Shown here: one piece after another, positions 3,052 through 31,749 of the stretch
Position numbering within the stretch: position 1 is the first letter of the stretch
Layout: each line of letters begins with the position of its first letter
Origin: Nitrospirota bacterium
GTDB lineage: Bacteria > Nitrospirota > UBA9217
Direction of reading: 5' to 3'
Length of the DNA: 43,234 nucleotides
Assembly (NCBI GenBank): GCA_963741205.1
Contig: CAVUHW010000040.1
Coordinates: forward strand, 1-43,234
The notes under the pieces: generated by a model
The model's database searches: none
What the model was told of the DNA's origin: nothing
Seen by the model: the letters and a program-made list of their open reading frames with translations, nothing else
Position numbers and translations under genes: made by a program

Positions 3052-3065
3052 ATTTGTATTCAACT
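3052..3065. promoter_or_regulatory. Imperfect ATTTG-N4-CAAAT operator-like site (ATTTG TATT CAACT)
   Basis: One mismatch to the motif seen at five other promoters; lies next to a minus-strand extended -10 (TGGTAAAAT, ~3025-3033) pointing to copA. Confidence 0.5.
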
Positions 3066-3193
3066 TAATTCATCGCCTGTCCTGGCTTATTTCGTAGCAT
3101 ATCCTACACATGATTGCGTCAGTTGATTTATATTCTCTTTTTCATTGATACGGGAATATCATCTTTTCAATGAATTATCATGAATGGCATGGA

Positions 3194-3209
3194 TGGCATG
3201 GCAAATGCA
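3194..3209 (+). promoter_or_regulatory. sigma54 (-24/-12) promoter, copy 1
   Basis: TGGCATGGCAAATGCA = GG-N10-GC, conserved in the paralogous copy at 7529. IHF-like TTTCAATGAATTA at 3165-3177 just upstream. Confidence 0.75.
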
Positions 3210-3320
3210 CTATATATAAGCAAAACAACGAAAGAAGGAAACAAGAATTGTATCTTAGAAGATTAATTTTATTCAGTTGTAGAATTAAGATACTGAAGTA
3301 GCTAAAAAGAGGTGATCGAC

Positions 3321-3344
3321 ATGAAAAAGAAGTTTCCGCCGTAG
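3321..3344 (+). CDS. Putative leader peptide MKKKFPP*
   Basis: Strong SD (AAGAGGTG) upstream; conserved as MKKMFPP* in the second copy. Confidence 0.5.
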   Translation: MKKKFPP

Positions 3345-3416
3345 CAGGTTTCATGATGTCCTATTCCGAAGTGAACAGTTCCATTAAAAAATCTAAAAAA
3401 AGAAAGAGGTATTAAA

Positions 3417-3812
3417 ATGAAAAAGACAATATTATATGTGACAACGATGATGTTCGTCCTTGCTCTTGGAGTTTCCTATGCTGAGGCAGGCAGTAATTTC
3501 GGCAGTAATAAGGCTATCGCAAACACTAACTATGATATCGGTCCTGCAGATGTACCAGCTACGTCGATGGAAGTCACAAACGCCGGTGGGATACGATCGG
3601 TCGAACTAGGCATGGGATTGAATAACGCCGTTACGGACTTCAGCGGTAAGTCCTACGATTCGTTGGCGGACCTCAACGTAGCATCACTCGGTGAAAGACA
3701 GAGTGCAACCGCGGAAGGTTCACATGCCGGCGGGCTGCGATCAGTAGAGAATGGTATTGAGTCCTTTAACGGTGTTACCGACTTCACCGGAAGATCGTAC
3801 GATATCCTTTAG
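3417..3812 (+). CDS. Unknown secreted 131-aa protein with two internal AGG-x-RSVE...N(G/A)VTDF(S/T)G(K/R)SYD repeats (copy 1)
   Basis: SD AAGAGGT, Sec signal ending AEA, paralog at 7754..8149, downstream terminator. Confidence 0.9.
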   Translation: MKKTILYVTTMMFVLALGVSYAEAGSNFGSNKAIANTNYDIGPADVPATSMEVTNAGGIRSVELGMGLNNAVTDFSGKSYDSLADLNVASLGERQSATAEGSHAGGLRSVENGIESFNGVTDFTGRSYDIL

Positions 3813-3877
3813 ACGATCGACTAATAACTGACACCAGCAGAAGTATTAAAAATTTCTCGAGGCTACAGAAATCGAAC

Positions 3878-3910
3878 AAGAGCAGGCTGATTCACTGCCT
3901 GCTCTTTTAT
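3878..3910 (+). terminator. Rho-independent terminator
   Basis: AAGAGCAGGC...GCCTGCTCTT stem followed by T-rich tract. Confidence 0.75.
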
Positions 3911-4143
3911 TATAAATCAGAACCCTTCCGATGATGTTAGGGAAACACCCACCATGCACGGCCCAATGGTTAGTCATGTCATTGACCTAGATTATTAATT
4001 TAGTGATGATAAAATAATCCCTGATACAATCATGCATCCTCCGCACTTTAAGCAGTGCTTATACGGATTCGCCTATCCACGTAAATCCGTAGGTTACCTA
4101 CAGATTACGAAAAAAATATTATTATTCTAAATTCTGTCTCGTT

Positions 4144-5495
4144 CTATTTGAGCCCGAATTTAACCATCCGGTAGATGAGCGTCGGCCTCGTGATGCCCAG
4201 ATATTCCGCTGCGCGAGTCTGGTTGTGGCCGGTCTTCTCGAGGGCCTTGATAATCAGGTTTTTCTCCAGCGCCTCAAGATCGATCCCCTCCTCCGGAAGG
4301 TTCAGCAAGATGCTCTCGATGCTGTTTTTTTCTTTTTTAGCTTGTCCGGCAGGTCGTTCGGCGTCAAGACGTCTCCGCGTCTGAGTACCGACGCCCTCTC
4401 AATGACGCTTTCCAGTTCGCGGACGTTGCCGGGCCATCCATAGGACATCAGCACGTCAAGGGTTTCCTGCTGAACGCTGACGCCGGCATCCTTTGTGAAC
4501 TTCCTCAGAAAATGACTGACGAGGAGCGGGATGTCTTCCCGGCGCTCACGCAGGGGTGGCATGCGCAGGGCTATTACATTGATCCTATCGTAGAGATCCT
4601 CGCGGAACTTTCCTTCCCTGATCAACTGCTCAATGTCCCTGTTCGTTGAGGCGATGATTCGTACATCCACGTGTATGGATTTCGTGCCGCCGACCCGGTC
4701 GACGACCCTTTCCTGGAGGACCCTAAGAATTTTTGCTTGCAGATCGATGCGAAGGTCCCCGATCTCATCGAGGAGCAGCGTTCCTCCGTCTGCAAGCTCG
4801 AACTTGCCTTCCTTGTCCCTTACAGCGCCTGTAAAGGCTCCCTTCGCATGCCCGAAGAGCTCGCTCTCGATCAGGTTCTCGGGGATGGCGGCGCAGTTTA
4901 CCGCTATGAAGGGACCGTCGGTCCGATTGCTGTTGAAATGGACGCCTTTTGCGAGAAGTTCCTTACCCGTCCCCCTCTCCCCCGTGATCAGCACCGTCGC
5001 GTCGCTCGCGGCCACCCGCCCTGCCATGTCGAGCACTTCCCTGGTCTTGGCGCTGCTTCCCACGATACTCTCGAACCGGTACCGGTCGGTGACCACGGCG
5101 CGGAGCTCTACGTTCTCCTTCTCGAGCCGCCGCATCCGGAGCGCCTTATCGAGCGTCATTCGGAGCTCATCGCGGTTAAAAGGCTTGGTTATGTAATCGA
5201 AGGCGCCCTGCCTCATGGCCTCGACGGCGTTCTCGATCGTGCCGTAGGCCGTGATCATGATGACCGGCATACCCGGATCGCGCTCTCGGACCCTAGCCAG
5301 GACCTCCATGCCGTTCATTCCGGGCATGGTGATATCCGTGATCACCGCGTCGAAGGAGCTGTCCTCAAAGAGCCGCAGTCCTTCCTCGCCGCTCGCAGCG
5401 GTCCGCACGCGACTACCGGCCTCGGCTATGCTGAACTCGATGACCCGGCGCAGACTCTCGTCGTCGTCTATGAGGAGGATGGAGGATTTTTTCAT
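4144..5495 (-). CDS. sigma54-dependent NtrC/AtoC-family response regulator (REC + AAA+ + Fis HTH); frameshift in the poly-T run at ~4325-4340
   Basis: Receiver DD...D..MPG, GxxGTGKE, GAFTGA, LLDEIG, WPGNVREL. The HTH tail ALEKTGHNQTRAAEYLGITRPTLIYRMVKFGLK* is in another frame, ending at 4144. Confidence 0.93.
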
Positions 5496-5609
5496 ATTTG
5501 GATCAATGCAACCGCGCCTGCGCCCAGCGTTTACCTGTGCGATAGCGCAAGTGCAGCGTGTTGCTGTAATGAATGTACCGTCGAGGCGAGACGCGCTCCA
5601 TAAGTTTAC

Positions 5610-6713
5610 TCACACCGGTATCTTCACCGTAAAAGTCGCTCCCTTGCCCGGCTCGCTAGCGACATCGATCTTACCGTGGTGGTTCTCGACGATCCTGTAG
5701 GTAATCGCAAGTCCTAGGCCGGTGCCGTTTTTCTTGGTCGTAAAGAAGGGACTGAAGAGCTTCTTCCGGCCTTCTTCCGAGATGCCAACGCCGGTGTCGG
5801 TGATCACTACCACGATCATCCCGTCGCGGAGATCACTCGCGACCCTCAGCGTACCTCCCGTCGGCATTGCCTGGATGGCATTCAGCACCAGGTTCAGGAA
5901 CGCCTGCTTGAGCAGTCCTTCATCGAGGCTGCGCTTCCCGATTGACGGATCGAGCCGCTTCTCGACGTTCACGCCGGCTTTGCGCGCCTCCTGGGCCGTG
6001 AGCGTCAGCACCGCTTCGAGAGACTGGTTCACGTCGGACTGCTGATACTCGGGCTTCTTGGGCCGTGCAAACCCCAAAAACTCCTGCACGATGCAATTCA
6101 GCCGGTCCGTTTCCTTAAACAGTATCTGGATGAACTCGTACTTCGAGTCCTCGGGCGAATAGTCGTCCTTCAGGATCTCGACGGCGCCCTTGATTGCGCC
6201 CAGGGGATTTCTGATCTCGTGAGCCATACCTGCGGACAGCTCGCCAAGCGCAGAAAGCCGGTCGGCGCGTCGGAGCTGCTCTTCGGTCTGGAACAGGACG
6301 TCTGTCTGCTCTTTCAGTTTCCGGTGGGACTCGTCGAGACGGCGCATGGCCTCTTCATTTCGAATCCGCTGGCTGTGCTCCATCTCGCTTAATACGCCAG
6401 TGACGCCGCCGATCAGGAAAAACAGAAACAGTTCCACGTAGTTATAGACACTCAGAAAAGGGTCATGCCAGTGAAGGAATAGGTGCGGCGAAAAAAGTGC
6501 CGCCGATGCCATGGAAACCGACAGACCGCCCTTAGCTCCGTACCAATACGCCCCGAGGATGATCGGCACGATGTAGAGATGGCCGAGCAGGCCATGCAGT
6601 ATGCCCGCCGCCGAGATGCCCACGCTGTAATGGATGATCGAGATGAGCACAAGGAGCCCCGTAAGCATATACGCTCGGAAGCCCCTAATATGGCTGCGAG
6701 GTAATAAGATCAT
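5610..6713 (-). CDS. Sensor histidine kinase with His-rich membrane sensing domain
   Basis: H-box AHEIRNPL, N-box NLVLNAIQA, G-boxes DTGVG and GTGLGL; about four N-terminal TM segments containing several His. Confidence 0.93.
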   Translation of the reverse strand: MILLPRSHIRGFRAYMLTGLLVLISIIHYSVGISAAGILHGLLGHLYIVPIILGAYWYGAKGGLSVSMASAALFSPHLFLHWHDPFLSVYNYVELFLFFLIGGVTGVLSEMEHSQRIRNEEAMRRLDESHRKLKEQTDVLFQTEEQLRRADRLSALGELSAGMAHEIRNPLGAIKGAVEILKDDYSPEDSKYEFIQILFKETDRLNCIVQEFLGFARPKKPEYQQSDVNQSLEAVLTLTAQEARKAGVNVEKRLDPSIGKRSLDEGLLKQAFLNLVLNAIQAMPTGGTLRVASDLRDGMIVVVITDTGVGISEEGRKKLFSPFFTTKKNGTGLGLAITYRIVENHHGKIDVASEPGKGATFTVKIPV

Positions 6714-6851
6714 AAAGTGAATCCGAGGCCCTGAAAACGCGGTGCAGTATCCCCCTCTTGTCCAATTACAAAAGGAGCGATTTTATTTAAATAACACCAG
6801 AGACACAAACAATACCCCCCACTACTTGATCTGGTCTTTGGCGAAATATTG

Positions 6852-7067
6852 TCACTCTTCAATCCGATATCCGAGCTTCTCAATACTGTCCTTCGTGATC
6901 TTCGATAGCTTTTCCTCGTCAATCACTGCTTCGTTGAACTTTACGGCGATCTTCCCGTGCTCCACGTCTATGGAATCAACGCCATCCATCCCGCCGACGA
7001 ACCGTCTCAGTGCAAGCGAGCACTCACCGCATAGATTGTTGCTTACGTTAAATAGAGCTACTTTCAT
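6852..7067 (-). CDS. HMA-domain (CopZ-like) metal chaperone
   Basis: 71 aa, CGEC motif, DGV.SIDV, C-terminal IEKLGY typical of the HMA fold. Confidence 0.8.
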   Translation of the reverse strand: MKVALFNVSNNLCGECSLALRRFVGGMDGVDSIDVEHGKIAVKFNEAVIDEEKLSKITKDSIEKLGYRIEE

Positions 7068-7112: not shown

Positions 7113-7346
7113 TTATGATTTCATAATATCATCCTTCATCCGCTCGAAATCTTCTTTTGATATCTCGCCCTTGGCAAATCGTTTCTTCAAAATATCAATA
7201 GGTGTCTCGTTTGCATCTGTCCTCATGTAGCGACTGGTTATTGCCTGAACAATATACAAGAAACCTGCAATAATCAGCACCCCTAAGATGATCATGAAGA
7301 ACCATCCGAATCCCATACCCCATCCGTAATTACCCCAGCTCATCAT
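7113..7346 (-). CDS. SHOCT-domain small membrane protein
   Basis: GWGMGFGW + TM helix + ILKKRFAKGEISKEDFERMK (SHOCT signature); SD AGGAG. Confidence 0.88.
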   Translation of the reverse strand: MMSWGNYGWGMGFGWFFMIILGVLIIAGFLYIVQAITSRYMRTDANETPIDILKKRFAKGEISKEDFERMKDDIMKS

Positions 7347-7384: not shown

Positions 7385-7408
7385 TATTAATTTGCATACA
7401 AATTAATA
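7385..7408. promoter_or_regulatory. Perfect palindromic operator TATTAATTTG-CATA-CAAATTAATA
   Basis: 10-bp perfect inverted repeat with 4-bp spacer, overlapping the promoter region of the SHOCT-HMA-HK-RR unit. Confidence 0.75.
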
Positions 7409-7528
7409 CAACTCCCGCGTCGTTTATTTCGAAGCATATCCTACACCTGATTGTATCGTTCGACTCATCTTCTTTTTTTATTGCGACGGGGAATCCGTCT
7501 TTTCAATGAATTACGCGTATGATGCGGA

Positions 7529-7544
7529 TGGCATGGCATATGCA
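7529..7544 (+). promoter_or_regulatory. sigma54 (-24/-12) promoter, copy 2
   Basis: TGGCATGGCATATGCA = GG-N10-GC; IHF-like TTTCAATGAATTA at 7501-7513. Confidence 0.75.
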
Positions 7545-7652
7545 AAATACATTGGCATACAGCGAAAGAGAATATCGTAAATCTTATTTACGTGGATTTT
7601 TTATTAAACTGCCGAACGAAGATACTGAGATAGTAAAAAAGAGGTGATTAAT

Positions 7653-7676
7653 ATGAAAAAGATGTTTCCGCCGTAG
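7653..7676 (+). CDS. Putative leader peptide MKKMFPP*
   Basis: SD AAGAGGTG; paralog of 3321..3344. Confidence 0.5.
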   Translation: MKKMFPP

Positions 7677-7753
7677 AAGTTGTATAAGAACTTTGTCTTA
7701 AGAAAGATGTTCCATTTCAAAACTAAAATCTAATAAAAGAAAGAGGTGCTAAA

Positions 7754-8149
7754 ATGAAAAAGACAATATTATATGCGATAATGATGATGTTGGTCCTTGC
7801 TCTTGGAGTTGCCTATGCTGAGGCAGCCAGTAATTTCGGCAGTAATGAGGCGATCCCAAACACTAACTACGATATCGGCCCTGCAGATGTACCAGCCACT
7901 TTAGTGGAAGGCGCGAACGCCGGTGTGATACAATCGGCCGGACTAGGCATGGAATTGACTAATGGAGTTACGGACTTCAGCGGTAAGTCCTATGAATCGT
8001 TAGAGGACATCAGCGTGGCATCACTTGGTGAAAAACAGAGTGCAACGGCGGAAGGTTCACATGCCGGCGGTCTGCGATCGGTAGAGCCCGGCGTTGGATC
8101 CTTTAATGGTGTTACCGACTTCACCGGCAGATCGTATGATATCCTGTAG
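7754..8149 (+). CDS. Unknown secreted 131-aa repeat protein (copy 2)
   Basis: Colinear, same-length paralog of 3417..3812 with the same signal peptide and repeats. Confidence 0.9.
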   Translation: MKKTILYAIMMMLVLALGVAYAEAASNFGSNEAIPNTNYDIGPADVPATLVEGANAGVIQSAGLGMELTNGVTDFSGKSYESLEDISVASLGEKQSATAEGSHAGGLRSVEPGVGSFNGVTDFTGRSYDIL

Positions 8150-9249: not shown

Positions 9250-10288
9250 TCAATCATGATAACCCAGTCTGTGACTCTCGATATCAATATAGGTGAGCAC
9301 ATCCTTAATTTCTTCTTTATTCAACCCCAGATTGGGCATCGGCAGATCGTGGTACTCGGCCAATAAGGCCTTGGCGATGGGGTCTTTCTCTCTCAACATC
9401 TTGTCCGGCTCGGCCATCCAGCGGGTGAGCCAGGCCCGGTCACGCTTGTGGGTCACACCCAACAGGTCCGGCCCTAAAGGCCGCTTCTCGGCACGTTCTG
9501 CAGCCGTCATCACCGATCGTGTGGCAGGAGGCACAGCGGGTTCTGAAAAGTTCTTCTCCTTTGGAGATGTTTCGCACCTCGGGGGCCTCTGCATAATCTC
9601 TTTTCTCTTTTGGCGGCATCTTCCAGTTCTGCAACCAACTGCCTAACTGCGTGGCTAGGACGTAGGGGTTTTCAAAGGGTGACAGCTTCATCCACTGCCC
9701 CGTTGCCTGATTGCCGACGATGAAACTCAGGTTGTGGTCCTTAATGTTGTCGCCCTCCTCTTCGCTGTACAGGCCGAGTTTCGTGCGGATCAGTTTGATG
9801 TCGGCGTCCTTCCCGGTCAGAAACAGCCAGCCCGGGCCGATCTGGAATCTTTTTGCGTATTTTCTTAGGACTTTCACGGTATCATGCTTCGGATCTATCG
9901 TGATTGAATACAGAAAAACATCGCGACCGACCCGGTCCCCCAGTATCCTCTGAACCTCGCGAAGTCTCGCCGTCTCGAGGGCGCAGGCATCCGGACAATT
10001 CGTATAAATGAAGTTGAGCGCTACAACCTTGCCTTTTATGACATCAGTAAAGAACCGGACCTTCTTTCCTTCATGGGTGGTGAGTTGGACATCGGGGAAG
10101 TAGTCCGCGCCCCACATCGATCCGCCCGTTTCGTCGGCAATGGCGGGGCCCGCCGGGAAAATCACAATAGCTCCGATGAGCAATAATATGGCAGTAACTG
10201 CATGGATCGAGTTGCCGGTGTAATTTTTGCATAATTTCTCCCAAAATTCCCCTCCTCCCATCCCTCTCCCGCAGGGTAAGAGCTGCAT
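9250..10288 (-). CDS. SCO1/SenC copper chaperone fused to a monoheme cytochrome c; frameshift at ~9490-9510; start codon uncertain
   Basis: FIYTNCPDAC (CxxxC), SITIDP.HDT, conserved His; then CASCHTIG and, in the next frame, GPDLLGVT...W...MPNLGL. Confidence 0.88.
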
Positions 10289-10384: not shown

Positions 10385-13268
10385 CTAGGGAATAGAAGCT
10401 TGAACTGCAGGCCCGACCCCGTCGCCCGTCCTGAAGGTGGGGAGTGCTGCGGAGTCCACAAATTCTACCCCTTCCCACGTCGGCATGGGCGCAGGCATCA
10501 GCTTGAGCTGTCCTGGATGCTCGATGTCCCAGCGAAGCAGCATGGAGTGGTCCTCGTGCTGAGTATTGTGGCAGTGCTCCATGTAGGTCCCGTGAAACTC
10601 CCTGAAATGGATGGCGATCTCGACGCCATTGGTGTCATCGCCCAAGGGGCCTATCCGGTAGATGTCCTTGCGGGCATATTTTTCCCACAGGGGCGGCTCT
10701 TTCCCTCCGCGCGTCAGGATGACGCCTTCTTCAAAATGGACGTGGACCGGATGGGTCCAGCCTTGGCCGCCGTTCACAATATGCCATATCTCGAGTGTAC
10801 CATCCCCACTGAAACCCGCTTTCGTAGGACCGGTGGCGAGTTGAGGCGCGGCCGAGATCCGCCTGGGATCCATACCGAAGTCCGCCTCCCCGTCAGTTTT
10901 GATGGTCCACCGGGTCTGGTCCGTGGGGTTCGAGCGGGCGAATTCGAAGGTGCGGTGCCGCGCCTTCGCTATCTTTGCCAGATCGATCGGGTCATCACGA
11001 TGGATGGGAAGCGTGATCATTACTTTCCCTCCCGGTTCGAATCTCGTCGGGTCCATGGAGAGGTCTGTGCCGGAATACGGGAATACCCGGAATTCCAGGA
11101 ACCTACCGACACACGGGTCTCCTCCGACCCAGCGAAGCGGTACGCCGTTTGCGTCAAGCTCCATCCGGGCTTTGTATCTCTCGGACAGAATATCCGCAAG
11201 CGGGATCTTCCGATTCGGGCCCTTGCCGGTCGAATGTTCGAGCACATTGACGAAGTAAAGCTTATCGCCGGGCTTGATGCCGTATTTCGCGAAGTCGACG
11301 ATGATATCGTAGCGTTCGCGCAAGGCGGCCCAGTTCCGGCAGAATGGCGTTATGGTCGGCGTCCATTCTTGAGTCAAAGGCGATCGCGTGCTCCATGATA
11401 TTGCCGTCATTGGCGATCATATGGAATGGCACCCTGTTGTAGGAGACCCCGGAGTCCGGAGGTCCCGGCATCTCGCCGCCATCCCCCTTTATCTGATGTA
11501 CCAGCCCGATTGCGAAGAAGCGCGACGTCGAGGCGTCCAGAATACGGAAGCGATAGCGTCGGGCGCGAACGTTAAAGTAGGGGTGCCACAGCAGGTTGGT
11601 CGTGATCTCGTCGCCCACGAACCCGTCGAGGTTGAAGATATTGAACCACAGCTGGCCTTCCCGGTCCCAAGCCTTGTCCATGATGAAAAGGTTCACGTCA
11701 TAGTCGCGGTTCCCCCATGGCAGCGCCGTGCCGCTCGGGAAGCGAAGGTTGATTCCGTCGTCGAACGCTTCATTGCCCCGGTCTAGCGCGCTGTAGTAGT
11801 TCATCTTGGCGGCGTTGCCCTTGTATACGTTCTGGGCCGTGAAATCGAACATGTGGTCATGGAACCAGTGGGAGCTCATCGTCTCCCTCCAGTCGCCGCG
11901 GATCTTGATGGAGCCGTTTTCGCAGGTCTTCGGGTTCGGCTTGCCGTCGTTTACAAAGAGCGTTTCGCCGGGCGAACACGGAAATGCGGCCCGGGGATCG
12001 CTCGCGTCGGTGTTGATGCTGTCGTAGCCCGCCAGCTGGATCGGCCAGCGATAGTCATAGAACTCCCCCGGGAAGAAGAACGCATTGGTGAAGCCGTCGC
12101 TTTCACCCGGGGAGTGGCCGTTGTGCTCGTGGGTCGTGATCGTGTGCAGCCCGAAGCCGCGGTTCGCCGTCGGGTCAATGGGGAGCGCGTTGTGATGGCG
12201 GAAAGGATCGGCTCTCCATAGCGCACCATCGAGCAGCTTGGGCGGAAGCGTCCCGTCCAAGGTCCACATGGTCTTGTGGTTCTGAACAGGCATCAGCGGG
12301 TGGAATCGGAACGCGACGCCTTTCGTGGTCCCTACGAGCTTGGGCGCGCCCGGGACCGAGGATTCGTAGACCGTGTGATAAAGGCCTCCCGGTCCGAACT
12401 CACCGAGTGCGTACCCATGCCTCTGCAGACTGTCGCGCAAACCGGTGTTCGTGCGTGCGCCCGCAATGGCCGTTTGGGCAAATACTTGAGGAGTGAACTC
12501 GTTCCAACGCTGATGGGCCCAGCCTTCCCCCGGAGGTCGGCCTTCGGCTGGGGCTGTGGCAAGCGGCCTTCCAAGGAAGGCCTCAATGTCCCCTTTCCAC
12601 GGGTTTTGATCTCCGGTATCGGAGAACCTTGTGGGAAAAGGCGCAAGGCCTTTCTGCGAGAGAAAGGCATCCAAATCAGCCCCCGATGGGCCGCTCGCGA
12701 AAATGCTAGCCGGATCCTGCTCTGGCCCGGGTCCGATAGAAGGCATTGGAAACGGCATTGTCGGCAAAGGAGAGGACGGATCGAGCGGCTCGGTACCCAG
12801 CTCCTCGGCTCTCATCATCTGTTGGGTGAAATCCTGGGCGCCAAACAGCGGGCTCGGCCTGCCGTTGGTAGGGATGTTCAACGCCAGCAGTTGCGCCTTT
12901 TGGACTACATTGTTGATGCCCTCGTCTTTGAAGGTCCCTGATGGACCTCCCACGAAGGCCCCCTGATTTGCCGGAGGAAGCGTGGCGAGCAGATCACGGG
13001 CAAACTGCAGCCCGATGAAAGGCCCGATGAACGCGGTCGGATCTCCCGCCGGCGGCGGAGCAAAGCAGTCCAGTACCCCAGGTGGCGGGACGACGCAGGC
13101 GCCGATCGCCATGCTTCTTATTTTGGGGTCTGTCACCGGGCCTTGCGGAGACGATGTTCCGCCACTGCATCCCCACAAAGTTATAAGCAAACCACTGAGC
13201 ATTACACCGATAAAGAATCGATCGAATTTCTTTATCGGATTAGCTGACGCTATATTTATTTTTAACAT
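10385..13268 (-). CDS. Large lipoprotein multicopper oxidase; frameshifts at ~12205-12230 (compensating pair) and ~11330
   Basis: Lipobox LWGC; copper motifs THEHNGH, HWFHDH, HPVHVH, HCHNTQHEDHSM across the two ORFs. Confidence 0.92.
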
Positions 13269-13354
13269 TTCATATCACCTTCTTTGCCTCAAGTATAGAC
13301 CTCAACTATGCTTTTTTCTACCTACCAAAGCATGATTTTATTTTTAGTCAAATT

Positions 13355-13368
13355 ATTTGTCTTCAAAT
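13355..13368. promoter_or_regulatory. Operator-like site ATTTG-TCTT-CAAAT upstream of the multicopper oxidase
   Basis: Perfect match to the recurring motif, about 90 bp upstream of the start. Confidence 0.6.
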
Positions 13369-13837
13369 GTTTGCCTAGCATGTTACTCTCTTAAGCTTTA
13401 AAGAGGTACGACCTATCAAGGGCACGCTTCCGATAGGTTGCGAAGTTTCCACGGCGATTAAACCGTGTGAGGAATCATCAAAGAGGCGGACACGGACGTG
13501 ACAAAAGAATATATTGCTTGAATATGAACCAGTTCTCGGGGATTGTGGCCAGATTCGACCTTAGACTGCGAGACGGGTCATGAACTTCAGTGTCTCCGCC
13601 GACGAAGCGTTAAGAATGACCATCAAGCGACATCATTCATGCCGTTGCAGATACCGCCACTGAGGATATTCATCGAAGATGTGATGGAAGGTAACGTCGG
13701 GTTGCCGGGAGATGGGATCCCTCGGCGTACGCAGGATCGATGCCTTCGCTCCGGTCACAGTGCTAAGGCAATTAATTCTATAACTGTAGAAAATATCGAG
13801 GAGGGAGCACATCAAGCCTTCAATGCCGGCATTCCAG

Positions 13838-15236: not shown

Positions 15237-15818
15237 TTATTCCGTCATGACGACAAAGTCGTCTCGTCGGTTCTGCTGCATGCATGACTCGTCATGTCCG
15301 GCGCAGACCGGCTTTTCTTTGCCGTAGCTCAAGAGTGTTATGCGTTGTGCAGAGACGCCCATGTCGGTCAGATACTTCTTTGCGCTCGCACTGCGTCGCT
15401 GGCCCAGGGCCTGGTTGTACTCTTTGGTCCCGCGCTCATCGCAATTCCCTTCAATCCTGATCCTGACGCGGGAATGGGCCTTAAGCCAGTCGGCATTGGC
15501 TTTCATAATCTGCCCTGCGTCATCACGGACATTTGACTTGTCATAATCGAAATAGACCGGCTTCAGGCCTGTCGAAGCGGCGGCGGCCCGTTCCCTGGCT
15601 TCCGCCTCTTTCGCCAAGCGAGCCTCCTCGGCCGCCTTTGCCGCGGCAGCGGCTTCTGCTGCCCTTTGCGCCTCGGCGGCTTTTGCAGCATCTTCCGCAG
15701 ACGTTTCCTTCGGAGTTTCCGGCGCTGAGGTCATTTCTGTTTTCTTGGGACAACCCCAGAGGACGACGAGACACGCCAGAACCAATAATGACACAAACGA
15801 TATACTTTTGAACTTCAT
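15237..15818 (-). CDS. pal: Peptidoglycan-associated lipoprotein (OmpA-C domain)
   Basis: Lipobox LWGC; VYFDYDKS, IEGNCDERGTKEYNQALGQRR, SYGKEKP, NRR. Confidence 0.93.
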   Translation of the reverse strand: MKFKSISFVSLLVLACLVVLWGCPKKTEMTSAPETPKETSAEDAAKAAEAQRAAEAAAAAKAAEEARLAKEAEARERAAAASTGLKPVYFDYDKSNVRDDAGQIMKANADWLKAHSRVRIRIEGNCDERGTKEYNQALGQRRSASAKKYLTDMGVSAQRITLLSYGKEKPVCAGHDESCMQQNRRDDFVVMTE

Positions 15819-16229: not shown

Positions 16230-16243
16230 ATTTGTGTTCAAAT
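16230..16243. promoter_or_regulatory. Operator ATTTG-TGTT-CAAAT in the marR divergent promoter region
   Basis: Perfect motif match between the marR promoter and its start; a minus-strand TTGACA lies about 22 nt away. Confidence 0.7.
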
Positions 16244-16296
16244 TATTAACACAATGAACCTTTATTGTCAACAGCATATTTCGGAGGAAACATCTT

Positions 16297-20443: not shown

Positions 20444-21276
20444 ATCTCAAAATTGATTTTTTCTTGTGATATATACCGAATCTGATATTATCGGGCATGG
20501 CATTGCGTATTACAGACGAGCAATGGGAACTAATCCGGGAGCACTTCCCAGAAGAAAATATTCCCGATGGTCGCGCAGGACGCAAGCCGATACCCACTCG
20601 TCAAGTCCTTGAAGGTGTGCTCTGGATCCTGAACACAGGAGCGCAGTGGCACATGCTTCCACAATGCTATCCGAACTATAAAACTGTCCATCGTCGTTTT
20701 CAGCAGTGGTGCCGCAAAGATGTCCTGCGTGATGTTCTGTGCCAGCTAGCAAACACACTGCGCGAGTCCGGAGCGCTGGACGAATCCGAGTGCTACATCG
20801 ATGCAACCTTCTCCCCGGCAAAAGGCGGAGGAGATGGCATCGGCCTAACAAAGCGAGGAAAAGGCGTGAAAATCATGGGTATTGTGGATCGCAATGGTTT
20901 GCCCCTGGCAATCACCACGCACGCTGCGAATCACCATGAAGTCACGCTTGTTCAGCTGACTTTTGACTTCTACATGATTGAAGCAAAGCCGGAGAAGCTG
21001 ATTGGCGACAAAGCGTACGATAGCGATCGTCTCGATGACGAGTTGAAAAATGACGGCATAGAAATGATCGCGCCGCACAAAAAGAATCGCGTTCTTCAGC
21101 AGACGCAAGACGGTCGAGCGCTGCGTCGCTATAAACGACGTTGGCTCGTTGAAAGATTCTGGTCCTGGCTTCACTGGCATCGGCGTCTCGTTGTTCGCTG
21201 GGAATACTACACTACGAATTTTCTCGGCTTTGTTCAGCTAGCATCCATCTGTATCCTACTAAAGCAATTTTGAGAT
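20444..21276 (+). mobile_element. IS5-family insertion sequence
   Basis: 12-bp perfect inverted repeats ATCTCAAAATTG (20444-20455) and CAATTTTGAGAT (21265-21276) around a transposase; exact outer ends and target duplication not resolved. Confidence 0.85.
20497..21273 (+). CDS. IS5-family transposase (single ORF)
   Basis: TDEQW...GVLWILNTGAQWHMLP..YP..KTVHRRFQQW; IDAT, GDKAYD, YKRRWLVER. Confidence 0.95.
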   Translation: MALRITDEQWELIREHFPEENIPDGRAGRKPIPTRQVLEGVLWILNTGAQWHMLPQCYPNYKTVHRRFQQWCRKDVLRDVLCQLANTLRESGALDESECYIDATFSPAKGGGDGIGLTKRGKGVKIMGIVDRNGLPLAITTHAANHHEVTLVQLTFDFYMIEAKPEKLIGDKAYDSDRLDDELKNDGIEMIAPHKKNRVLQQTQDGRALRRYKRRWLVERFWSWLHWHRRLVVRWEYYTTNFLGFVQLASICILLKQF

Positions 21277-21548: not shown

Positions 21549-21562
21549 GTTTGTATTCAAAT
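21549..21562. promoter_or_regulatory. Operator GTTTG-TATT-CAAAT upstream of the second MarR gene
   Basis: One mismatch to the motif; same position relative to marR and to a minus-strand TTGACA (21585-21590) as at copy 1. Confidence 0.65.
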
Positions 21563-21612: not shown

Positions 21613-22137
21613 GTGAAAAAGAAACCCGACATGATTTCGGAAATCATCAACAATCTGCGCAGAGTTTTCCAGGCGGTGAACGAACAGTCGAAAAAGGTCG
21701 AGCGCCAAACAGGCCTTACCGGCCCTCAGCTCTGGGCGATCAAGACCATCGCCCAGGAAGCGCCGATCATGGTATCGGAAATAGCCCGTCGCATGTATCT
21801 CCACCCGGCTACGGTAGTCGGTATCCTTGACCGGCTCGAGAAACAGGGGCTCGCTGTGCGGGTTCGCTCGACGGAAGACCGGCGTGTTGTGAAGGTGGAA
21901 TTGACCAGACAAGGTCAGTACCTCGTCAAAAAAGCGCCAGAAGTGGCTCAAGGCCTCCTGGTTTCCAAGCTCGAGAAACTCGCCTCGACGAACCTGAAGA
22001 ACATCTCCGAGGGGCTGAATCAGATGGTGGATATCCTCGGCGCCCAGAACATCCCTCCCCGTCTTATGCTCTCCCCGGAGGTAAACAGGCCGGCGAAATC
22101 GAAAACTACTTGGAGGGAAAAGGACGTAAGGATATAG
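21613..22137 (+). CDS. MarR-family transcriptional regulator (copy 2)
   Basis: Close paralog of 16297..16833; GTG start after a GGAG SD. Confidence 0.92.
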   Translation: MKKKPDMISEIINNLRRVFQAVNEQSKKVERQTGLTGPQLWAIKTIAQEAPIMVSEIARRMYLHPATVVGILDRLEKQGLAVRVRSTEDRRVVKVELTRQGQYLVKKAPEVAQGLLVSKLEKLASTNLKNISEGLNQMVDILGAQNIPPRLMLSPEVNRPAKSKTTWREKDVRI

Positions 22138-22157
22138 AACGCGGTTTCTATTAAAAT

Positions 22158-23199
22158 ATGATTAACAGCACAGAAGAAAATAAACTTTTGATTAGCCGGT
22201 CTTTGCTGTATACTTTATTGGCTTTTGCCTTTGCGCTCGGAGTATTTGCGGACTCGGCTAGAGACTATTCTTATTTCTCCTTCGGATAGCAAAAGCGGCG
22301 CGGTTCCCGAAAGCGCAGAAGGAACATTCAGGTTCATCCGTACCTCGGCAATATCGAATAGTTCAGAAAATAATCGATCAACCGAAGAACTCAAACCATT
22401 CCAATACAAAGTGAACGAATTAATCGAAAGCACTTTGAAGAGCGGGGACGCAGCTTCTGTATCGGTTTATTTCCGGGATTTGAACAACGGGAACTGGTTT
22501 GGTATCGGTGAGCATGACAAGTTTCTTCCGAAGGATCTCATAAAGGTTCCTCTCATGATCGCATATTTCAAGTGGGCAGAATCGAACCCGCTGGTTTTAC
22601 GCAAGACCCTGACCTACGTCGGCAACAACCGAATAGTGATGCGGCAGCTCGACAATCCGGCGAAGAAACAACTGGAGCCCGGAAAAACCTATAGCGTAAA
22701 TGACCTCATTTTCAGAATGATCGCTTATGACGACTCTGCTGCGTATGCGTTGCTACACGCGCACCTGCCCTCCGGCCGTCTTGAGAAGATATACAGCGAC
22801 CTGAGTGTGGAATATAATCCTCAGAAACAAGATGATTTTCTGTCATTGAGGGAGTACGCTTCATTCTACCGCGTTCTGTACAACGCGTCCTATCTTTCAG
22901 AAGAGATGTCTGAAAAAGCCCTCCGCTATCTTTCGAAAGCCACCTCCTGGGACGGCATGGAGGCGGGCATCCCGCCGAACATCGAGATCGCCTCCAAATG
23001 GGGCGAACAGACGAGCTTAATTGCCGAGGAAGGGGAAAAACAGGAACTGCGGCAACTCCACGAATTCGGAATCATTTATCATCCGAACCGTCCATTTCTT
23101 CTCGGCATCGTGACACGCGGCACCAATGTTGCCCGGATGGCAAGAGTGATCCGCGATATCAACCATCTCGTATTTCAGGAAGTGGATAAACAATCATAG
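22158..23199 (+). CDS. Class A beta-lactamase-like serine-hydrolase-fold protein with degenerate active site; N-terminal anchor in another frame (frameshift ~22260-22285)
   Basis: SVYFRDLNNG, LIKVP, LYNASYLS, HEFGIIY.P.RPFLL. The SxxK, SDN and KTG positions read DLIK, DDS and KWG. Confidence 0.75.
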
Positions 23200-26863: not shown

Positions 26864-27539
26864 CTAAATATGTTCGATATCCCCTTTTTCCTCGTCCTTC
26901 TTTTCCGTCTCTTTCTCGATTATCTTTCGCGCGGCATCGATGCCGCCGACGCCGAAGGAAATTGACAATGCCAGGACGATGCCTCCGAAGATGATGGAGA
27001 ATGCGTTCACGACGATGTTTGGCGCAACCTGGAGCTGCTCCAGGGCCATGGCGACGAACAGGAGCGTCAGGAGAACGCGCACCGCCTCGGCTAGAAGCCT
27101 CGCGAACAGGTACCCCCGGTTCACCGCTGAAATAAGAACAGTCCTGCTGATGAAGCCCGTCACAATATACCCGATGACAAGGACCACAGCGGCGGTCAGC
27201 AACCTCGGAACGTACATGATGAAACGCGAAATGAGGCTGTCCATGGCCTGGATATTCAGCGCGCTAATTCCCGCCATCAATACTCCGATGATAAGGGACC
27301 AGAACACAAATGACGCCATGGCCACGGACGGCCTGTCCCAGAGGTCCCCTCTTCTCATGACCGAGGTAAATCCCATCCTGTCGCTCCAGCTGTCGAACTT
27401 GATTGCCTCGAAGCAACTTAACGACGACCAACCGCACGATTCGCGCCGCGGTGATTCCGACCAGGATAATGATAAGCATGGTCAGAATGTTCGGGCAGAA
27501 CCTCGCGAACCGGTAGTACACGTCCTTCAATTGTTCCAT
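26864..27539 (-). CDS. Membrane protein with MscS/CmpX-like conserved TM helices; frameshifted
   Basis: PNILTMLIIILVG, YVPRLLTAAVVLVIG, ALEQLQVA, ALSISFGVGG. Confidence 0.75.
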
Positions 27540-27624
27540 GAGTACAGCTGGCGAATGCCTCCATATTGCACCTCCCCTAATCCGGACAGGCCGGAATTGC
27601 AAATCGAATTGGAATTTGGAAACT

Positions 27625-28898
27625 TTATAACAATAAATATTTCCAATTGTTGACCAGGTGACCCTTGCCCTCCTCGAATTCCAGGCAGAGCTTCTCGATC
27701 TCCGCCTCGGCTTCAGCCTGACCCTTGTCCCGTACCTCCATGACAAACGAAGCCGTTTTCCCGAGGTAGAGCGGCGTCAGGGACCCGAGCAGGTGTTCAC
27801 GAGGCAGCTTCCTCGCATGATACGCAAGGGCGTAATCGTACACAACGCGGGTCCACAGTTTGAGCGGGAACCTGAATTCTTCATCGGCACGGGCGGCCAG
27901 GGCCTCAAGCTCGTGAAAATCGCCGCTCCCCAGTACGGTTATCCAAACCTCTTTCAGGTTCTTGAGCCCCGCCCTGAATAGGCGAAGCATCCTGCCGGCG
28001 TCCACCGAGACCTGCTCAAGCCCTACTTCGTATTGAAACCCGAATCCCGGCACCGGCTCCGAACCTGCGTACTGTTCTTCCACACTTTTTCGTAGGTCTC
28101 CATAAGGCCGAACGCCGAGCCCACAACCTGGTACAGCATGGCGGACAGGTCCGCTCCCGGGTCCTTGGGGTCGTGGATCTTCGCGCCGAGAAAGGCCTGG
28201 GCCACCTTGAAATCGTTCGCGATCGCCTCCGTCGTCATCCAGATATCGATGCCGTACCGGGCGACATCGGTATTGCCAGACGTCCTTGGCGAGAAAATGT
28301 TCGCCAGCCTGCCGGAAAAACCGAAATCCCCGCCTATCGGCTGCCGGACCCGCTTGCCGTACAAGGCACGGGTAAGAGGATAGACAATGCTGTTCGTGAT
28401 CGTGCCGTCATACTTGTGACGGTGGTACAGAGGGGTAACGTAATCCACTTCCGCTTCGAGGACCGGCTTTACCAGAAGTTCCACCCACTCGGGTGTGATA
28501 CTCCGGAGGTCGGAGTCCACGACCGCGCAGGCCTTCACCTGGAGCGCCTCGGCAATCTCAAAGATCGTGCGGAATGCGCTGCCCTTGCCCGGCAAGCCAT
28601 GATAGGGGATTGCCATCTTAAAGGCCGGCTCCACCCGATGGTGGAGCAGGATAGAACCGAAGTTCTCGATAACGGTGTTCTGCACGACGTCGATGGTCCC
28701 ATCGGTTGACCCACCGTCGGAATCGACAAGCACCGCCTTACGGTCGGGAAAGTATTTTGCGAGGCCCGCTTGCACCGCGCGCACAACGTGACCGATGGTC
28801 CGGGCGTTGTTGTAGCTCGGGATGCCGACGAGGATGTCGGCGGCACCGACCTGCTCAACAAATGCTCGGACCTCCTGACGTTGAACGATTCTTTTCAT
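27625..28898 (-). CDS. Glucosylglycerate synthase (Ggs)-like GT2 glycosyltransferase; frameshifted
   Basis: VGIPSYNNARTI, DGGSTDGT, GKGSA, VDSDLRSI, RQPIGGDF, YGIDIWMT, HDPKDP; C-terminal part in 27625..28083. Confidence 0.8.
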
Positions 28899-29134
28899 TG
28901 GCTCTCATTCGTATAATTAAACTATAGTTCATTGGCTGAATGTTACGATACCGCTTGCCGTGCTCATCCTTCGACAAGAATGATCTGAATATCCATGACG
29001 TTCGTTCCTGTCGGGCCGGTCTTTAAAAGAGAACGAGATCCGCTGACGGCATCGAACTTCTCAAACGACGTATATGAATCGTTGTTGGCCAGATAATCCC
29101 CGGCAGAGAGGCTATGGTCTGCAGCCAGGCGCAC

Positions 29135-29361
29135 CCTTCTGAGATCCTGTCCCCCAGCAGGTCCTCGGTTGCCAATGCCATTCGCGCCGTTGCCTTGCCG
29201 GCGCCCAGCACGAGGATGCGCCTGAATACCCCGAGGTCGAAGGTCCCTCCGGCGGTATGCAGTGTGCCGCCCTCAATCCGCATTGCCTTTCGTACCGCCG
29301 TGTAGGGATCAACAGCACCAATTGCCGCGCGATAGATGTCAAACAGAGCGGTACCGTTCAT
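29135..29361 (-). pseudogene. N-terminal fragment of class II glycerate kinase (GckA/TtuD-like)
   Basis: IYRAAIGAVDP...LVLGAGKATARMA...LGDRISEG, after which similarity is lost abruptly. Confidence 0.75.
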
Positions 29362-29398
29362 ATCGCTATCCTCTTGTTTATTAGGCTGCACGGCAGGA

Positions 29399-30191
29399 TC
29401 ACCCGAGCAGCAGCATCACTGCTTCATTCCAGCCCGCAGGGCCGATGCCGTTTGTCAGGTACAGGCCTGGAATATTTATCCTGGGATCATGGGTTCCGTC
29501 ATTCCTGCGGATGAGAACCGGTTTGTCCACTGCAAGAAGAAACGGCAGGTCGTTGAGGCTATCCCCGAGGCCCACCAGGGTGACAGTGCCGTGAGCGCGC
29601 TCGTAGAGTCCCCTCAGCACGTTCACGGCTTTCCCCTTATGATGGTTGCCCATGATGTGGAATATTCTCCCCTGGGTCCATCTGAGGCCCTCCGCTTCGA
29701 TAGCCTGGAGGAACCTGTCATCCGTAGCCTTGGCAAAAACAAATGGCTCGTCATACTCCCGCATGGTCGAGAGATGCCTCGTACTTGGGAAGGCCTGTCA
29801 GCGCCATGATCTCCCGGGTGTTCATATCGCCGAAGCCGCGCACCGGGATTTTGAGACGATCTCTCAGTGAAATGAAACGCTTTCGGATCTCGCTGTATCC
29901 AATGCCGAGCGAAATCACCAGATAGCCATTTCTCTTTTCGCCGTCTATTGGAAACGGGAAATACCCTTCCGGGATGTAAATGCCACCTCCGTTTTCCGCG
30001 ATGAAGGGATGATGATTCCCGAGGCGCGTCCGGTGCACTTCCAGCTCCGCGCGGGTCTTGCTGGAGCAGAGTATCAGCGGAATATCAGACTGCTCTATTA
30101 GTTCCAGAGCCGGCTTCGCCTCTGCATAAGAATAGTTTCGCTCATGAAGGAGCGAGCCGTCCAGGTCTGTGATAATAATTGTCTTGCTCAT
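29399..30191 (-). CDS. HAD-IIB mannosyl/glucosyl-3-phosphoglycerate phosphatase (MpgP/GpgP); frameshift at ~29770
   Basis: TDLDGSLL, CSSKTRAE, FIAENGG, REYDEPF, GLGDSLND. Confidence 0.88.
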
Positions 30192-30357
30192 TGTCCGCCC
30201 ACCCGCGGCCCATAGTAAACGATGACCACCGAGCACAATATAAATTCAATCCATATTGCAGCCATGGAAGTTCCTATGATTTATCGTCTTGTTGCGCTCC
30301 TCTTTGCCATCAACTTGCTCTAATTGTTCATGTAACTTATAATCACGCCGCTGTTGA

Positions 30358-31560
30358 TCATTTGCTCTTGTTCACTGCCATTACATAGCGCATGGCAAGC
30401 GGCGCAAGCAGGGTCGTGAGCGCAACTACGAAGACGACCACGGCATAGGCTGCGTCGTCGAATATCTTGCTCCGCTTTCCCACCTCGGCAAAAATCAGGC
30501 CGACCTCACCCCGGGGCACCATAGCGACGCCCGTGGACAGCTTTTCCCGAAAGCCGCCCGGCGCCCATACGCCGCTGGCCATTTTGCTCAACACCGCAAC
30601 GACGGTAAGAACTCCTGCATAACCCCAGAAGGCCCCAGAGTGCATGTCGATCACCCGCAGGTTGATGGAAACGCCGACCATCACAAAGAATACGGGAACG
30701 AATAGGTCGATGATGGGCGTAATGCTCTCTTCGATCTTTTCTGCAAGCTGATGACTGTAATGCTCGATGCTTGCGCCCAAGGGAAGGAAGAACCGGCGCG
30801 CAAGAGCGATCCCCGCCGCAAAGGACCCGAGGATCGCCGGAGCGCCCACGCTGCGGGAAATGACTGCCAGGCCGAGGATCAGGGATATGATAATAGTGGG
30901 GACCATGCCCTTCGTTCTGCCGGAGGATGCCGCCTTCGCCATCAGCGGAACGAACAGCTTGGCCAGCACCGGTGCAAGGAGCAGGAACGCCGATATGAAC
31001 ACCAGGATCCTTGCAGTTGCCGCGACGCTCACGGTCCCCTTGACGGCAAAATCGTAGAGTACGGCAAGGACGACTACGCCGATCACGTCGTCCAGGACAG
31101 CGGCGCCGAGGACGATCCGCGCCATTCGGCTAAGGTGTTGGTTCAGGTCCTTCAGCACACGCACGGTGATCCCTATGCTCGTTGCTACGATCGTGCCTCC
31201 CACGAAGAGCGAGGGGATCACGGCCATTCCGAAAAAGCGATAGGACACCCAGAACCCGAGGACACCCGGGACTACAACGCCGGTGACCGCAACCAGTGTG
31301 GACCTCACGCCTTCTTTTACGAGCTGACCCACGTCTGTTTCCAGACCCACTTCGAAGAGCAGCAGCAGGATGCCAATCTCCGCGATAAGTTGGAATGTTG
31401 GTTCCGGTGCTATGAACCGCAAAACGCTCGGCCCTATGATCAGACCGGCGACAACCTCCCCAAGCACTGAAGGGATGTTCAGCCTGCTGAATACTTCGGC
31501 AAATAACTTCGCCGCGAGCAGAATAACAAGCAGTTTGAGAAAAAATTCCGAAACTTCCAC
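30358..31560 (-). CDS. CPA2-family cation:proton antiporter
   Basis: LLFEVGLETD, ATSIGITVRVL, AAVLDDVIG, MVPRGEVGLIFA; probable GTG start at 31560 after GGAGAGG. Confidence 0.92.
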   Translation of the reverse strand: MEVSEFFLKLLVILLAAKLFAEVFSRLNIPSVLGEVVAGLIIGPSVLRFIAPEPTFQLIAEIGILLLLFEVGLETDVGQLVKEGVRSTLVAVTGVVVPGVLGFWVSYRFFGMAVIPSLFVGGTIVATSIGITVRVLKDLNQHLSRMARIVLGAAVLDDVIGVVVLAVLYDFAVKGTVSVAATARILVFISAFLLLAPVLAKLFVPLMAKAASSGRTKGMVPTIIISLILGLAVISRSVGAPAILGSFAAGIALARRFFLPLGASIEHYSHQLAEKIEESITPIIDLFVPVFFVMVGVSINLRVIDMHSGAFWGYAGVLTVVAVLSKMASGVWAPGGFREKLSTGVAMVPRGEVGLIFAEVGKRSKIFDDAAYAVVVFVVALTTLLAPLAMRYVMAVNKSK

Positions 31561-31584
31561 TATTGAGCCTCTCCCTGATGAAAT

Positions 31585-31632
31585 AAAAAAGGCCGGCGCA
31601 AGCATCAATGGAAAAATGCTCTTTGCCAGCCC
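31585..31632 (-). terminator. Intrinsic terminator inside the 5' leader of the antiporter operon
   Basis: Minus strand GGCUGGC...GAGCAU-loop-AUGCUU...GCCGGCC followed by U6. Confidence 0.7.
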
Positions 31633-31708
31633 TCTTTCCCGGCGTACTCTGTTCATCCTGTAGAATGTACTTCCGGGCGCGTCAGTCCGCCATGCATCGT
31701 TAGTATTT

Positions 31709-31749
31709 ATTTGTGTTCTAATTATATTAGCTAAAAGGCATTATGTCAA
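31709..31749 (-). promoter_or_regulatory. Consensus sigma70 promoter overlapped by an operator-like site (ATTTG-TGTT-CTAAT, 31709-31722)
   Basis: Minus strand TTGACA-N17-TATAAT, a perfect consensus. Confidence 0.8.

Follow-up and report, generated by a model that had tools for sequence, protein, structure and literature searches.

A palindrome conserved upstream of marR genes is a probable operator of a MarR-family repressor in Nitrospirota

Nitrospirota of the kind considered here are uncultured and, to our knowledge, nothing is known about how they regulate their genes. We analysed a 43,234-nucleotide stretch of DNA (the window) from a Nitrospirota bacterium of the GTDB lineage UBA9217 (GenBank assembly GCA_963741205.1, contig CAVUHW010000040.1, positions 1 to 43,234), in which an original prediction, made from the sequence alone, had pointed to the palindrome ATTTG-N4-CAAAT at six promoter regions and proposed that two MarR-family paralogues, MarR1 and MarR2, act through it to co-repress copper-handling, envelope, ion-transport and osmolyte genes. 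Combining a comparison of related loci with an independently derived weight matrix, we favour the explanation that a MarR-family repressor conserved in Nitrospirota uses the palindrome, in the general form (A/G)TTTG-N4-CAAA(T/C), as its operator, and we put the probability of this explanation, taken as a whole with its mechanism and its further sites, at roughly 70%. The tie between MarR and its putative operator is well supported by the comparative evidence, while the individual candidate targets differ in strength.

Results

A genome scan for relatives of MarR1 yielded 15 loci, numbered with the prefix L and reaching up to 10 kb to either side of marR (282 kb in total); by title, 13 belong to Nitrospirota (including three from one metagenome-assembled genome, MAG), one to Nitrospiraceae and one to Syntrophales. 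In all 15, the palindrome GTTTG-N4-CAAA(C/T) lies 47–69 bp upstream of the marR start, the position that a palindrome also occupies at both marR genes of the window. Thirteen of these sites have at most one mismatch in the TTTG and CAAA cores, and those of L003 and L011, with two and one core mismatches, respectively, were placed by eye from the alignment. Information content reaches 1.58 bits per position over the ten arm positions, compared with 0.58 bits at −45 to −31, and the palindrome is retained even in a contig of 66.6% GC (L013) and in the Syntrophales locus. Judged by this alignment, the element is a phylogenetic footprint.

Several of the related loci show further arrangements of the element. 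The operators upstream of marR in L010 and L011 likewise contain tandem palindromes with a CAAAT-N-ATTTG junction, as described below for the window. Three marR copies, each with its own operator, are found in one Nitrospirota MAG (L006, L007 and L015), the copy in L015 (10001–10550) being split into two open reading frames (ORFs); in L007, a gene for a PCuAC copper chaperone lies downstream of marR. In the Syntrophales locus (L014), marR is preceded by a SnoaL-like gene, and a second good site (9265–9278, 16.5 bits on the matrix introduced below) lies about 50 bp upstream of the likely ATG of that gene (at about 9315), which suggests a two-operator unit.

The palindrome is set among promoter elements on both strands. 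On the strand opposite marR, 14 of the 15 related loci (the exception being the Syntrophales locus) show an exact TTGACA followed, after a spacer of 17 bp, by a TAnnAA-type −10 hexamer that ends between 2 nt inside and 3 nt before the palindrome, and the same layout recurs at sites 16230, 21549 and 31709 of the window (sites are named by their first position; Table 1). The marR strand of most loci carries TTGCAT and TAAAAT separated by 16 bp, the latter ending 1 nt short of the palindrome. Site 21549 accordingly lies between TTGCAT-16-TAAAAT (plus strand) and TTGACA-17-TATTAA (minus strand), and site 31709 directly follows a perfect minus-strand TTGACA-17-TATAAT. The palindrome therefore marks the point at which two promoters that face inward meet, and it extends over the likely start sites of both. 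The earlier remark that three of the sites stand 21–22 nt downstream of a minus-strand TTGACA, over the −10/+1 region, is confirmed (22, 22 and 21 nt for 16230, 21549 and 31709) and is extended here to the related loci. No conserved small ORF is common to the eight leaders that were compared between the opposite-strand promoter and the pal-like gene beyond it (those of the window and of 7 of the 15 loci).

We propose that a MarR dimer sits on the palindrome at each marR gene, at the meeting point of marR's own sigma-70 promoter and the opposite-strand TTGACA-17-TAnnAA promoter, which in most relatives leads to genes for a pal-like lipoprotein and a ClC channel. One bound dimer would block both start sites and would thereby combine autoregulation with control of the neighbouring operon. 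The same MarR would probably also bind at 31709, at the tandem 13340/13355 and at the duplicated sites 7390 and 3037/3052. That MarR is the binding protein, that its binding amounts to repression and that some signal releases it we infer from the arrangement of genes and sites; as to the signal itself, an ionic or osmotic cue or a small ligand would be our guess.

It counts against this proposal that what ties MarR to the palindrome is the co-location of the motif with the regulator gene. The protein–site link being of this indirect kind, the palindrome could instead be bound by a different global regulator, or be a structural promoter element, with marR merely one of its targets, and its embedding in promoter elements, a −10 hexamer standing on each side, would suit such a role. 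We consider this highly improbable. The distance to marR is fixed in 15 of 15 loci, including the Syntrophales relative, which has other neighbours and lacks the opposite-strand promoter; conservation of the operator core goes along with invariant DNA-reading residues in MarR; and autoregulation through a palindrome at the own promoter is the norm in the MarR family.

Both regulators are recognized as MarR proteins by Pfam (PF01047; 58.8 bits for MarR1 and 53.2 bits for MarR2, cutoff 24.6). They share 84% identity, and their recognition helices and wings are identical, which makes shared targets plausible; among 25 aligned relatives these parts are invariant. MarR is often present in several copies per genome, as in the window with its two copies of identical DNA-reading parts. 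Relatives of MarR1 in the protein collection number more than 2,000, the best 120 of which share 73–92% identity with it, the named ones among them coming from Nitrospirota. In an AlphaFold model of MarR1 (mean pLDDT, the model's per-residue confidence, 75.9), residues 1–145 form the helices and beta wing of the MarR fold and the tail is disordered; the Foldseek matches listed from the Protein Data Bank (PDB) are all MarR proteins (best 1s3j, E 2.3e-08). Copper-driven cysteine oxidation is known from Escherichia coli MarR. Neither MarR1 nor MarR2 has a single cysteine, which excludes thiol or copper-oxidation sensing and an OhrR-type peroxide switch.

Neither protein reached the cutoff of any NCBIfam subfamily, and NCBIfam, PDB sequence and fold searches returned generic MarR relatives at no more than 30% identity. 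Two names were rejected. OhrR, the label that one source gives to close relatives, is at odds with the missing cysteine and with an NCBIfam score of 47.7 bits against a cutoff of 200, and FabT reaches 57.5 bits against a cutoff of 200, with no fatty-acid synthesis genes flanking marR1 or marR2. MarR1 also has about 30 extra C-terminal residues (within residues ~140–178), in which a conserved ILGAQNIPPRLILSPEVN stretch is followed by a basic tail rich in lysine and arginine. Solved MarR proteins lack this extension of the subfamily, and in the model it is disordered; a possible role for it would be contact with the AT-rich operator flanks or with a partner protein.

All six sites in the window are present as the original prediction described them, in position and in sequence, and all are intergenic on our gene map on condition that marR2 starts at GTG 21613. 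Exact copies of ATTTG-N4-CAAAT occur three times, compared with 0.07 expected from whole-window dinucleotide shuffles and 0.03 from shuffles within 100-bp blocks, which preserve local AT content and hence the AT-rich character of intergenic DNA. Allowing one mismatch, we found nine matches, compared with 1.76 and 1.16 expected. None of 200 block shuffles reached three exact or nine near matches, so that the motif stands above chance even when local composition is kept. Three of the near matches lie beyond the six sites: those at 3037 and 13340 are each precisely 15 bp upstream of a known site (3052 and 13355), and that at 4146, inside the frameshifted C-terminal helix-turn-helix (HTH) coding part of a sigma-54 activator, is probably due to chance. 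The palindrome at 7385–7408 had been called a perfect one of 24 bp; its two 10-nt arms are perfect, but the 4-nt centre is not self-complementary, which leaves 22 of 24 positions. Because 3052 and 7390 both lie in duplicated DNA (the stretches 3052–3812 and 7390–8149), they are not independent of each other, and neither are 16230 and 21549, which stand in the paralogous upstream regions of the two marR genes. Counted independently, the six sites thus come down to about four places.

A symmetrised matrix built solely from the 15 foreign marR-upstream sites and scanned over the window again recovered every one of the six (scores in Table 1). With expectations derived from base composition (intergenic DNA, 10.9 kb, 44.9% GC), matches of at least 10 bits were in excess between genes (7 versus 1.04 expected) and at chance level in coding DNA (1 versus 1.17). 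Matrices with permuted half-site columns gave a mean of 1.04 intergenic matches, reached 7 in 0.4% of 499 tries and in none of them attained the 4 matches observed at 13 bits or more. A match as good as the 20-bit one at 7390 would be expected about 0.001 times in the intergenic DNA of the window. The lesser tandem partners at 3037 and 13340 score 6.4 and 9.0 bits. The tandem regions 3037–3066 and 13340–13369 are identical at 24 of 30 bases, and their flanks are unrelated. On sequence grounds, this tandem arrangement adds weight to the moderate sites 3052 and 13355, as the promoter–operator geometry does to 31709.

Conserved gene order points to the likely targets on the ionic and envelope side. 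In 11 of the 15 related loci (one of them partial), a pal-like lipoprotein gene lies on the opposite strand just upstream of marR; beyond it, eight loci have a ClC gene about 80% identical to that of the window, and three further loci have a more distant one. A beta-lactamase-fold gene lies directly downstream of marR in seven. This unit is split in the window, marR1 standing with pal and ClC and marR2 with the beta-lactamase-fold gene. The proposed control of envelope and anion transport thus gains the backing of gene order. At marR2, an insertion-sequence (IS) transposase gene of the IS4/IS5 family sits between the operator/promoter and the opposite-strand genes, and the ancestral pal–ClC partner is missing there. 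The earlier link from this site to the CHRD-cytochrome gene finds no backing, given the intervening transposase gene and the lack of any CHRD relative in the 15 loci, up to 10 kb to either side of marR.

For the antiporter/osmolyte operon, the proposal stands in part: site 31709 has the same promoter–operator layout as the marR loci, but its score is low. Next to more distant marR relatives lie a Na+/H+ exchanger gene (L013) and a trehalose-phosphate synthase gene (L014), and in L003 an antiporter gene, its product 67% identical to that of the window, follows ClC on the same strand. Taken with the conserved ClC and with site 31709, these neighbours suggest an ionic or osmotic theme.

On the copper side, a single promoter-like element precedes the multicopper-oxidase-like/SCO1 operon, and the 13340/13355 pair extends over its −35, spacer and −10, a placement on the core promoter that would fit repression. 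No sigma-54 promoter was found near 13355 on either strand, and the tandem site is therefore not an enhancer. Downstream of 7390 and of its duplicate 3052 lie sigma-54-type −24/−12 promoters (Table 1), each preceding a gene for a secreted protein of 131 amino acids (aa); the spacing of −24 GG and −12 GC is correct, and TGGCATGGCA(A/T)ATGCA is conserved between the duplicates. The activator encoded next door has receiver and Sigma54_activat domains and a Fis-type HTH tail, with a kinase gene adjoining. From its position at about −135, a MarR site might hinder this activator or might control the opposite-strand SHOCT operon.

The duplicated regions contain further conserved elements. Between the palindrome and the sigma-54 promoter lies a block, TTATTTCG(T/A)AGCATATCCTACAC, that is conserved between the duplicates (at about 3087–3110 and 7423–7446) and is a candidate binding site of the sigma-54 activator; it is followed, nearer the promoter, by an IHF-like TTTCAATGAATTA. 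Between the sigma-54 promoter and the 131-aa gene, a 7-codon ORF, MKK(K/M)FPP-stop, has its own ribosome-binding site (3321–3344 and 7653–7676), and its Pro-Pro-stop end suggests control by ribosome stalling. A possible TTGTAT-16-TAATAT promoter around 7390 (7 of 12 matches) was not relied on. The 131-aa proteins have no Pfam or NCBIfam match, and their look-alikes in the Atlas, at 0.81 or less, are at chance level.

The claim that site 3052 faces copA is not supported: copA is about 300 bp away, no acceptable minus-strand promoter was found there, and the site belongs to the duplicated sigma-54/131-aa module. Copper control in general is suggested by sequence matches, a strong one at 7390 and moderate ones at 13355 and 3052.

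Several observations weigh against one MarR acting at all of these promoters. Sites 3052 and 7390, which by their shared ancestry count as one event, are set about 135 bp ahead of sigma-54 promoters, a distance at which one would look for an activator site, and no acceptable sigma-70 promoter was found at either, a looser scan giving weak candidates with 8 of 12 matches. Upstream of the sole relative of the 131-aa genes found elsewhere (L007, 4282–4674), both the motif and a sigma-54 element are missing, and the sole antiporter relative found elsewhere, that of L003, likewise lacks a motif of its own. Outside marR operators, the 282 kb of related loci contain six matches of at least 13 bits, about 0.9 per 43 kb, so that 13355 and 3052 are, on score alone, only modestly above the background of real genomes; for 31709, at 10.6 bits, about 0.8 such matches are expected in intergenic DNA. 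The comparison covered about 20 kb per related genome, and a wider regulon would lie beyond this scope.

It is from these numbers that a narrower explanation draws its strength, by which operators function at the two marR genes only and 3052, 7390, 13355 and 31709 are AT-rich look-alikes, with no combined stress regulon. The background density, the scores of 10.6–13.2 bits at 31709, 3052 and 13355, the few extra sites within 10 kb of marR in related loci and the missing motif at the one checkable relative each of the 131-aa gene and the antiporter all agree with it. We nevertheless regard it as unlikely, because 7390 equals the best marR operators in score, because otherwise unrelated regions share a 30-bp tandem with the same 15-bp offset and dissimilar flanks, because 31709 repeats the exact TTGACA-17-(−10)-palindrome geometry and because the excess of matches is intergenic, with coding DNA at chance.

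The sigma-54 promoters raise another alternative, namely that the neighbouring sigma-54 response regulator, when phosphorylated, binds 7390 and 3037/3052 as its upstream activator sites and from there loops to the −24/−12 promoters of the two 131-aa genes; the resemblance to the MarR site would then be a coincidence. NtrC-family activators usually bind tandem palindromes at about −100 to −200, and here an NtrC/AtoC-type activator with a Fis-type HTH tail is encoded next door together with a kinase, conserved sigma-54-type promoters lie 133–136 bp downstream of both sites, and good sigma-70 promoters were not found there. We rate this alternative as unlikely all the same, as 7390 attains its 20.0 bits on a matrix derived from the marR operators of other genomes, a near-identical tandem site (13340/13355) has no sigma-54 element nearby on either strand, and the block TTATTTCG(T/A)AGCATATCCTACAC, nearer the promoter, remains free as a candidate activator site.

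We therefore retain the MarR operator as the favoured explanation and grade its predicted targets: membership in the regulon is supported for pal–ClC and for marR itself and plausible for the antiporter/osmolyte and multicopper-oxidase operons; it is no more than possible for the duplicated 7390/3052 module, and it is unsupported for copA and the CHRD-cytochrome gene.

Table 1 Palindromes, promoters and genes of the window. Genes were assigned by Pfam and NCBIfam profile matches; scores are from the matrix built on related marR loci, and mismatches are to ATTTG-N4-CAAAT.
Feature	Position	Strand	Sequence or match	Score (bits)	Remarks
Site 3052	3052–3065		ATTTGTATTCAACT; 1 mismatch	13.0	
Site 7390	7390–7403		ATTTGCATACAAAT; exact	20.0	
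Site 13355	13355–13368		ATTTGTCTTCAAAT; exact	13.2	
Site 16230	16230–16243		ATTTGTGTTCAAAT; exact	16.3	Upstream of marR1
Site 21549	21549–21562		GTTTGTATTCAAAT; 1 mismatch	19.9	Upstream of marR2
Site 31709	31709–31722		ATTTGTGTTCTAAT; 1 mismatch, at conserved core position	10.6	Promoter of antiporter/glycosyl-glycerate operon
Match 321	321			11.0	Inside copA
Site 22144	22144–22157			11.5	Weak extra candidate, intergenic, between marR2 and beta-lactamase-fold gene; ~1 chance match expected
Best-scoring palindrome	7385–7408				Between SHOCT-HMA-kinase-activator operon (−) and predicted sigma-54-dependent 131-aa gene (+)
Tandem palindromes	3037–3065		3037–3050 (weak) and 3052–3065		In duplicated copy of 7390 region
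Tandem palindromes	13340–13368		13340–13353 and 13355–13368		Over candidate promoter of multicopper-oxidase-like/SCO1 operon
Sigma-70-type promoter at marR1	16243–16271	−	TTGACA 16271–16266, 17-bp spacer, TAATAA 16248–16243		−10 abuts palindrome
Candidate promoter, multicopper-oxidase-like/SCO1 operon	13363–13335	−	AAGACA 13363–13358, 17-bp spacer, TAAAAT 13340–13335		
Sigma-54-type −24/−12 promoter	3194–3209	+	TGGCATGGCAAATGCA		136 bp downstream of 3052 site centre
Sigma-54-type −24/−12 promoter	7529–7544	+	TGGCATGGCATATGCA		133 bp downstream of 7390 site centre
copA	143–2734	−			
Secreted 131-aa protein	3417–3812	+			Paralogue of 7754–8149
Sigma-54 activator (response regulator)	4144–5495	−			Frameshifted in A-run ~4324–4338; Fis-type HTH tail in other frame, stop at 4144
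Histidine kinase	5610–6713	−			
HMA copper chaperone-like protein	6852–7067	−			
SHOCT protein	7113–7346	−			
Secreted 131-aa protein	7754–8149	+			Paralogue of 3417–3812
SCO1	9440–10288	−			
Multicopper-oxidase-like gene	10385–13268	−			Two overlapping ORFs
ClC channel	14020–15186	−			C-terminus frameshifted
Pal-type lipoprotein	15237–15818	−			
marR1	16297–16833	+			178 aa; MarR-family winged-helix regulator
CHRD-cytochrome	18675–20138	−			
IS transposase (IS4/IS5 family)	20497–21273	+			
marR2	21613–22137	+			174 aa if start is GTG 21613; paralogue of marR1
Beta-lactamase-fold protein	22225–23199	+			
Mannosyl/glucosyl-phosphoglycerate phosphatase-like, glycerate-kinase-like, glucosyl-phosphoglycerate-synthase-like and MscS-like genes	26864–30236	−			Several fragmented
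Na+/H+ antiporter	30358–31656	−			

Frameshift-like breaks occur in the C-terminus of the ClC gene (~14020–14060), in the multicopper-oxidase-like gene (11262–11410), in the MscS-like genes (26864–28083) and in the phosphatase/glycerate-kinase-like genes (29023–30236); the frameshifts of the window reflect either homopolymer assembly errors or decay. An Rfam scan of the window at gathering thresholds gave a single match and nothing near any palindrome site. The match is a c-di-GMP-I riboswitch (39984–40063, minus strand; 54.2 bits, gathering score 35) that precedes a small ORF lacking any family match. Two cytochrome P460 genes are found near each other (31945–32556, plus strand; 34347–34898, minus strand), the first of them 223 bp from site 31709, on the side opposite the antiporter.

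Discussion

Autoregulation and a divergently transcribed target operon characterize the MarR-family repressors MarR of E. coli (operator marO), MexR and OhrR, and by analogy the mechanism proposed here looks like an ordinary one of this kind. MarR1 and MarR2 share with these systems the winged-helix MarR domain and fold, an own-promoter palindrome overlapping −10/+1 and tandem sites at some promoters. They differ in that the putative window operator sits where two inward-facing promoters meet, in about 30 extra C-terminal residues with ILGAQNIPPRLILSPEVN and a basic tail, and in the lack of cysteine, which leaves neither the switch of OhrR nor that of copper-oxidised MarR.

The closest functional analogues of the window MarR may be EctR and CosR. 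As far as the cited passages describe them, both repress compatible-solute genes in response to a signal that is unknown and for which ionic strength has been proposed (PMC5924519; bioRxiv 10.1101/845297); EctR binds, as a homodimer, an AT-rich pseudo-palindrome, which overlaps the −10 of a solute-synthesis promoter, and it controls its own gene in one species (PMC5924519), and the passages on CosR report no autoregulation in Vibrio parahaemolyticus (bioRxiv 10.1101/845297). In a similar way, site 31709 abuts the −10 (TATAAT) of the antiporter/glycosyl-glycerate operon, at 10.6 bits, and distant relatives of the window MarR have a Na+/H+ exchanger and a trehalose-phosphate synthase as neighbours. 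The resemblance ends at the ect genes, of which there are none here, and at the operator, whose half-sites are 5-bp cores 4 bp apart in the window, compared with 8-bp halves 2 bp apart in the cited description of EctR (PMC5924519).

FabT, the MarR-type repressor of fatty-acid synthesis in streptococci, is the best NCBIfam match of both window MarRs, and its complex with DNA (6jbx) is among the top fold matches (TM-scores 0.62/0.74). The sites of FabT, too, may have TTTG...CAAA arms. The likeness is limited by the NCBIfam score given above, by 21% identity in the fold match and by the absence of fab genes near either marR. A literature search combining MarR with Nitrospira and a chloride channel, or MarR with glucosylglycerate, found no paper on such a regulator.

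A bolder reading of the same sites, which we regard as possible and put forward tentatively, is that a cysteine-free Nitrospirota MarR subfamily, marked by a C-terminal PPRL-SPEVN motif and a basic tail, is a master switch of ionic stress. One dimer would shut two colliding promoters, and the regulator would have been recruited to the copper two-component/sigma-54 circuit and to the multicopper-oxidase, pal–ClC and Na+/H+ antiporter/compatible-solute operons. If true, such a switch would couple the responses to metal, chloride and osmotic conditions, and MarR would gate a sigma-54 enhancer region at 7390 and 3052, an arrangement of which we know of no description, no literature search having been aimed at it.

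At its more secure core, the analysis provides a concrete predicted operator for a regulator with more than 2,000 relatives, together with a first candidate regulon that has the pal-like lipoprotein, the ClC channel and the beta-lactamase-fold protein at its centre and Na+/H+ antiport, compatible-solute synthesis and copper handling as possible extensions. The motif may be used to annotate regulons in MAGs and, should the extensions hold, a MarR without cysteines would link metal stress to osmotic and ionic stress in these bacteria.

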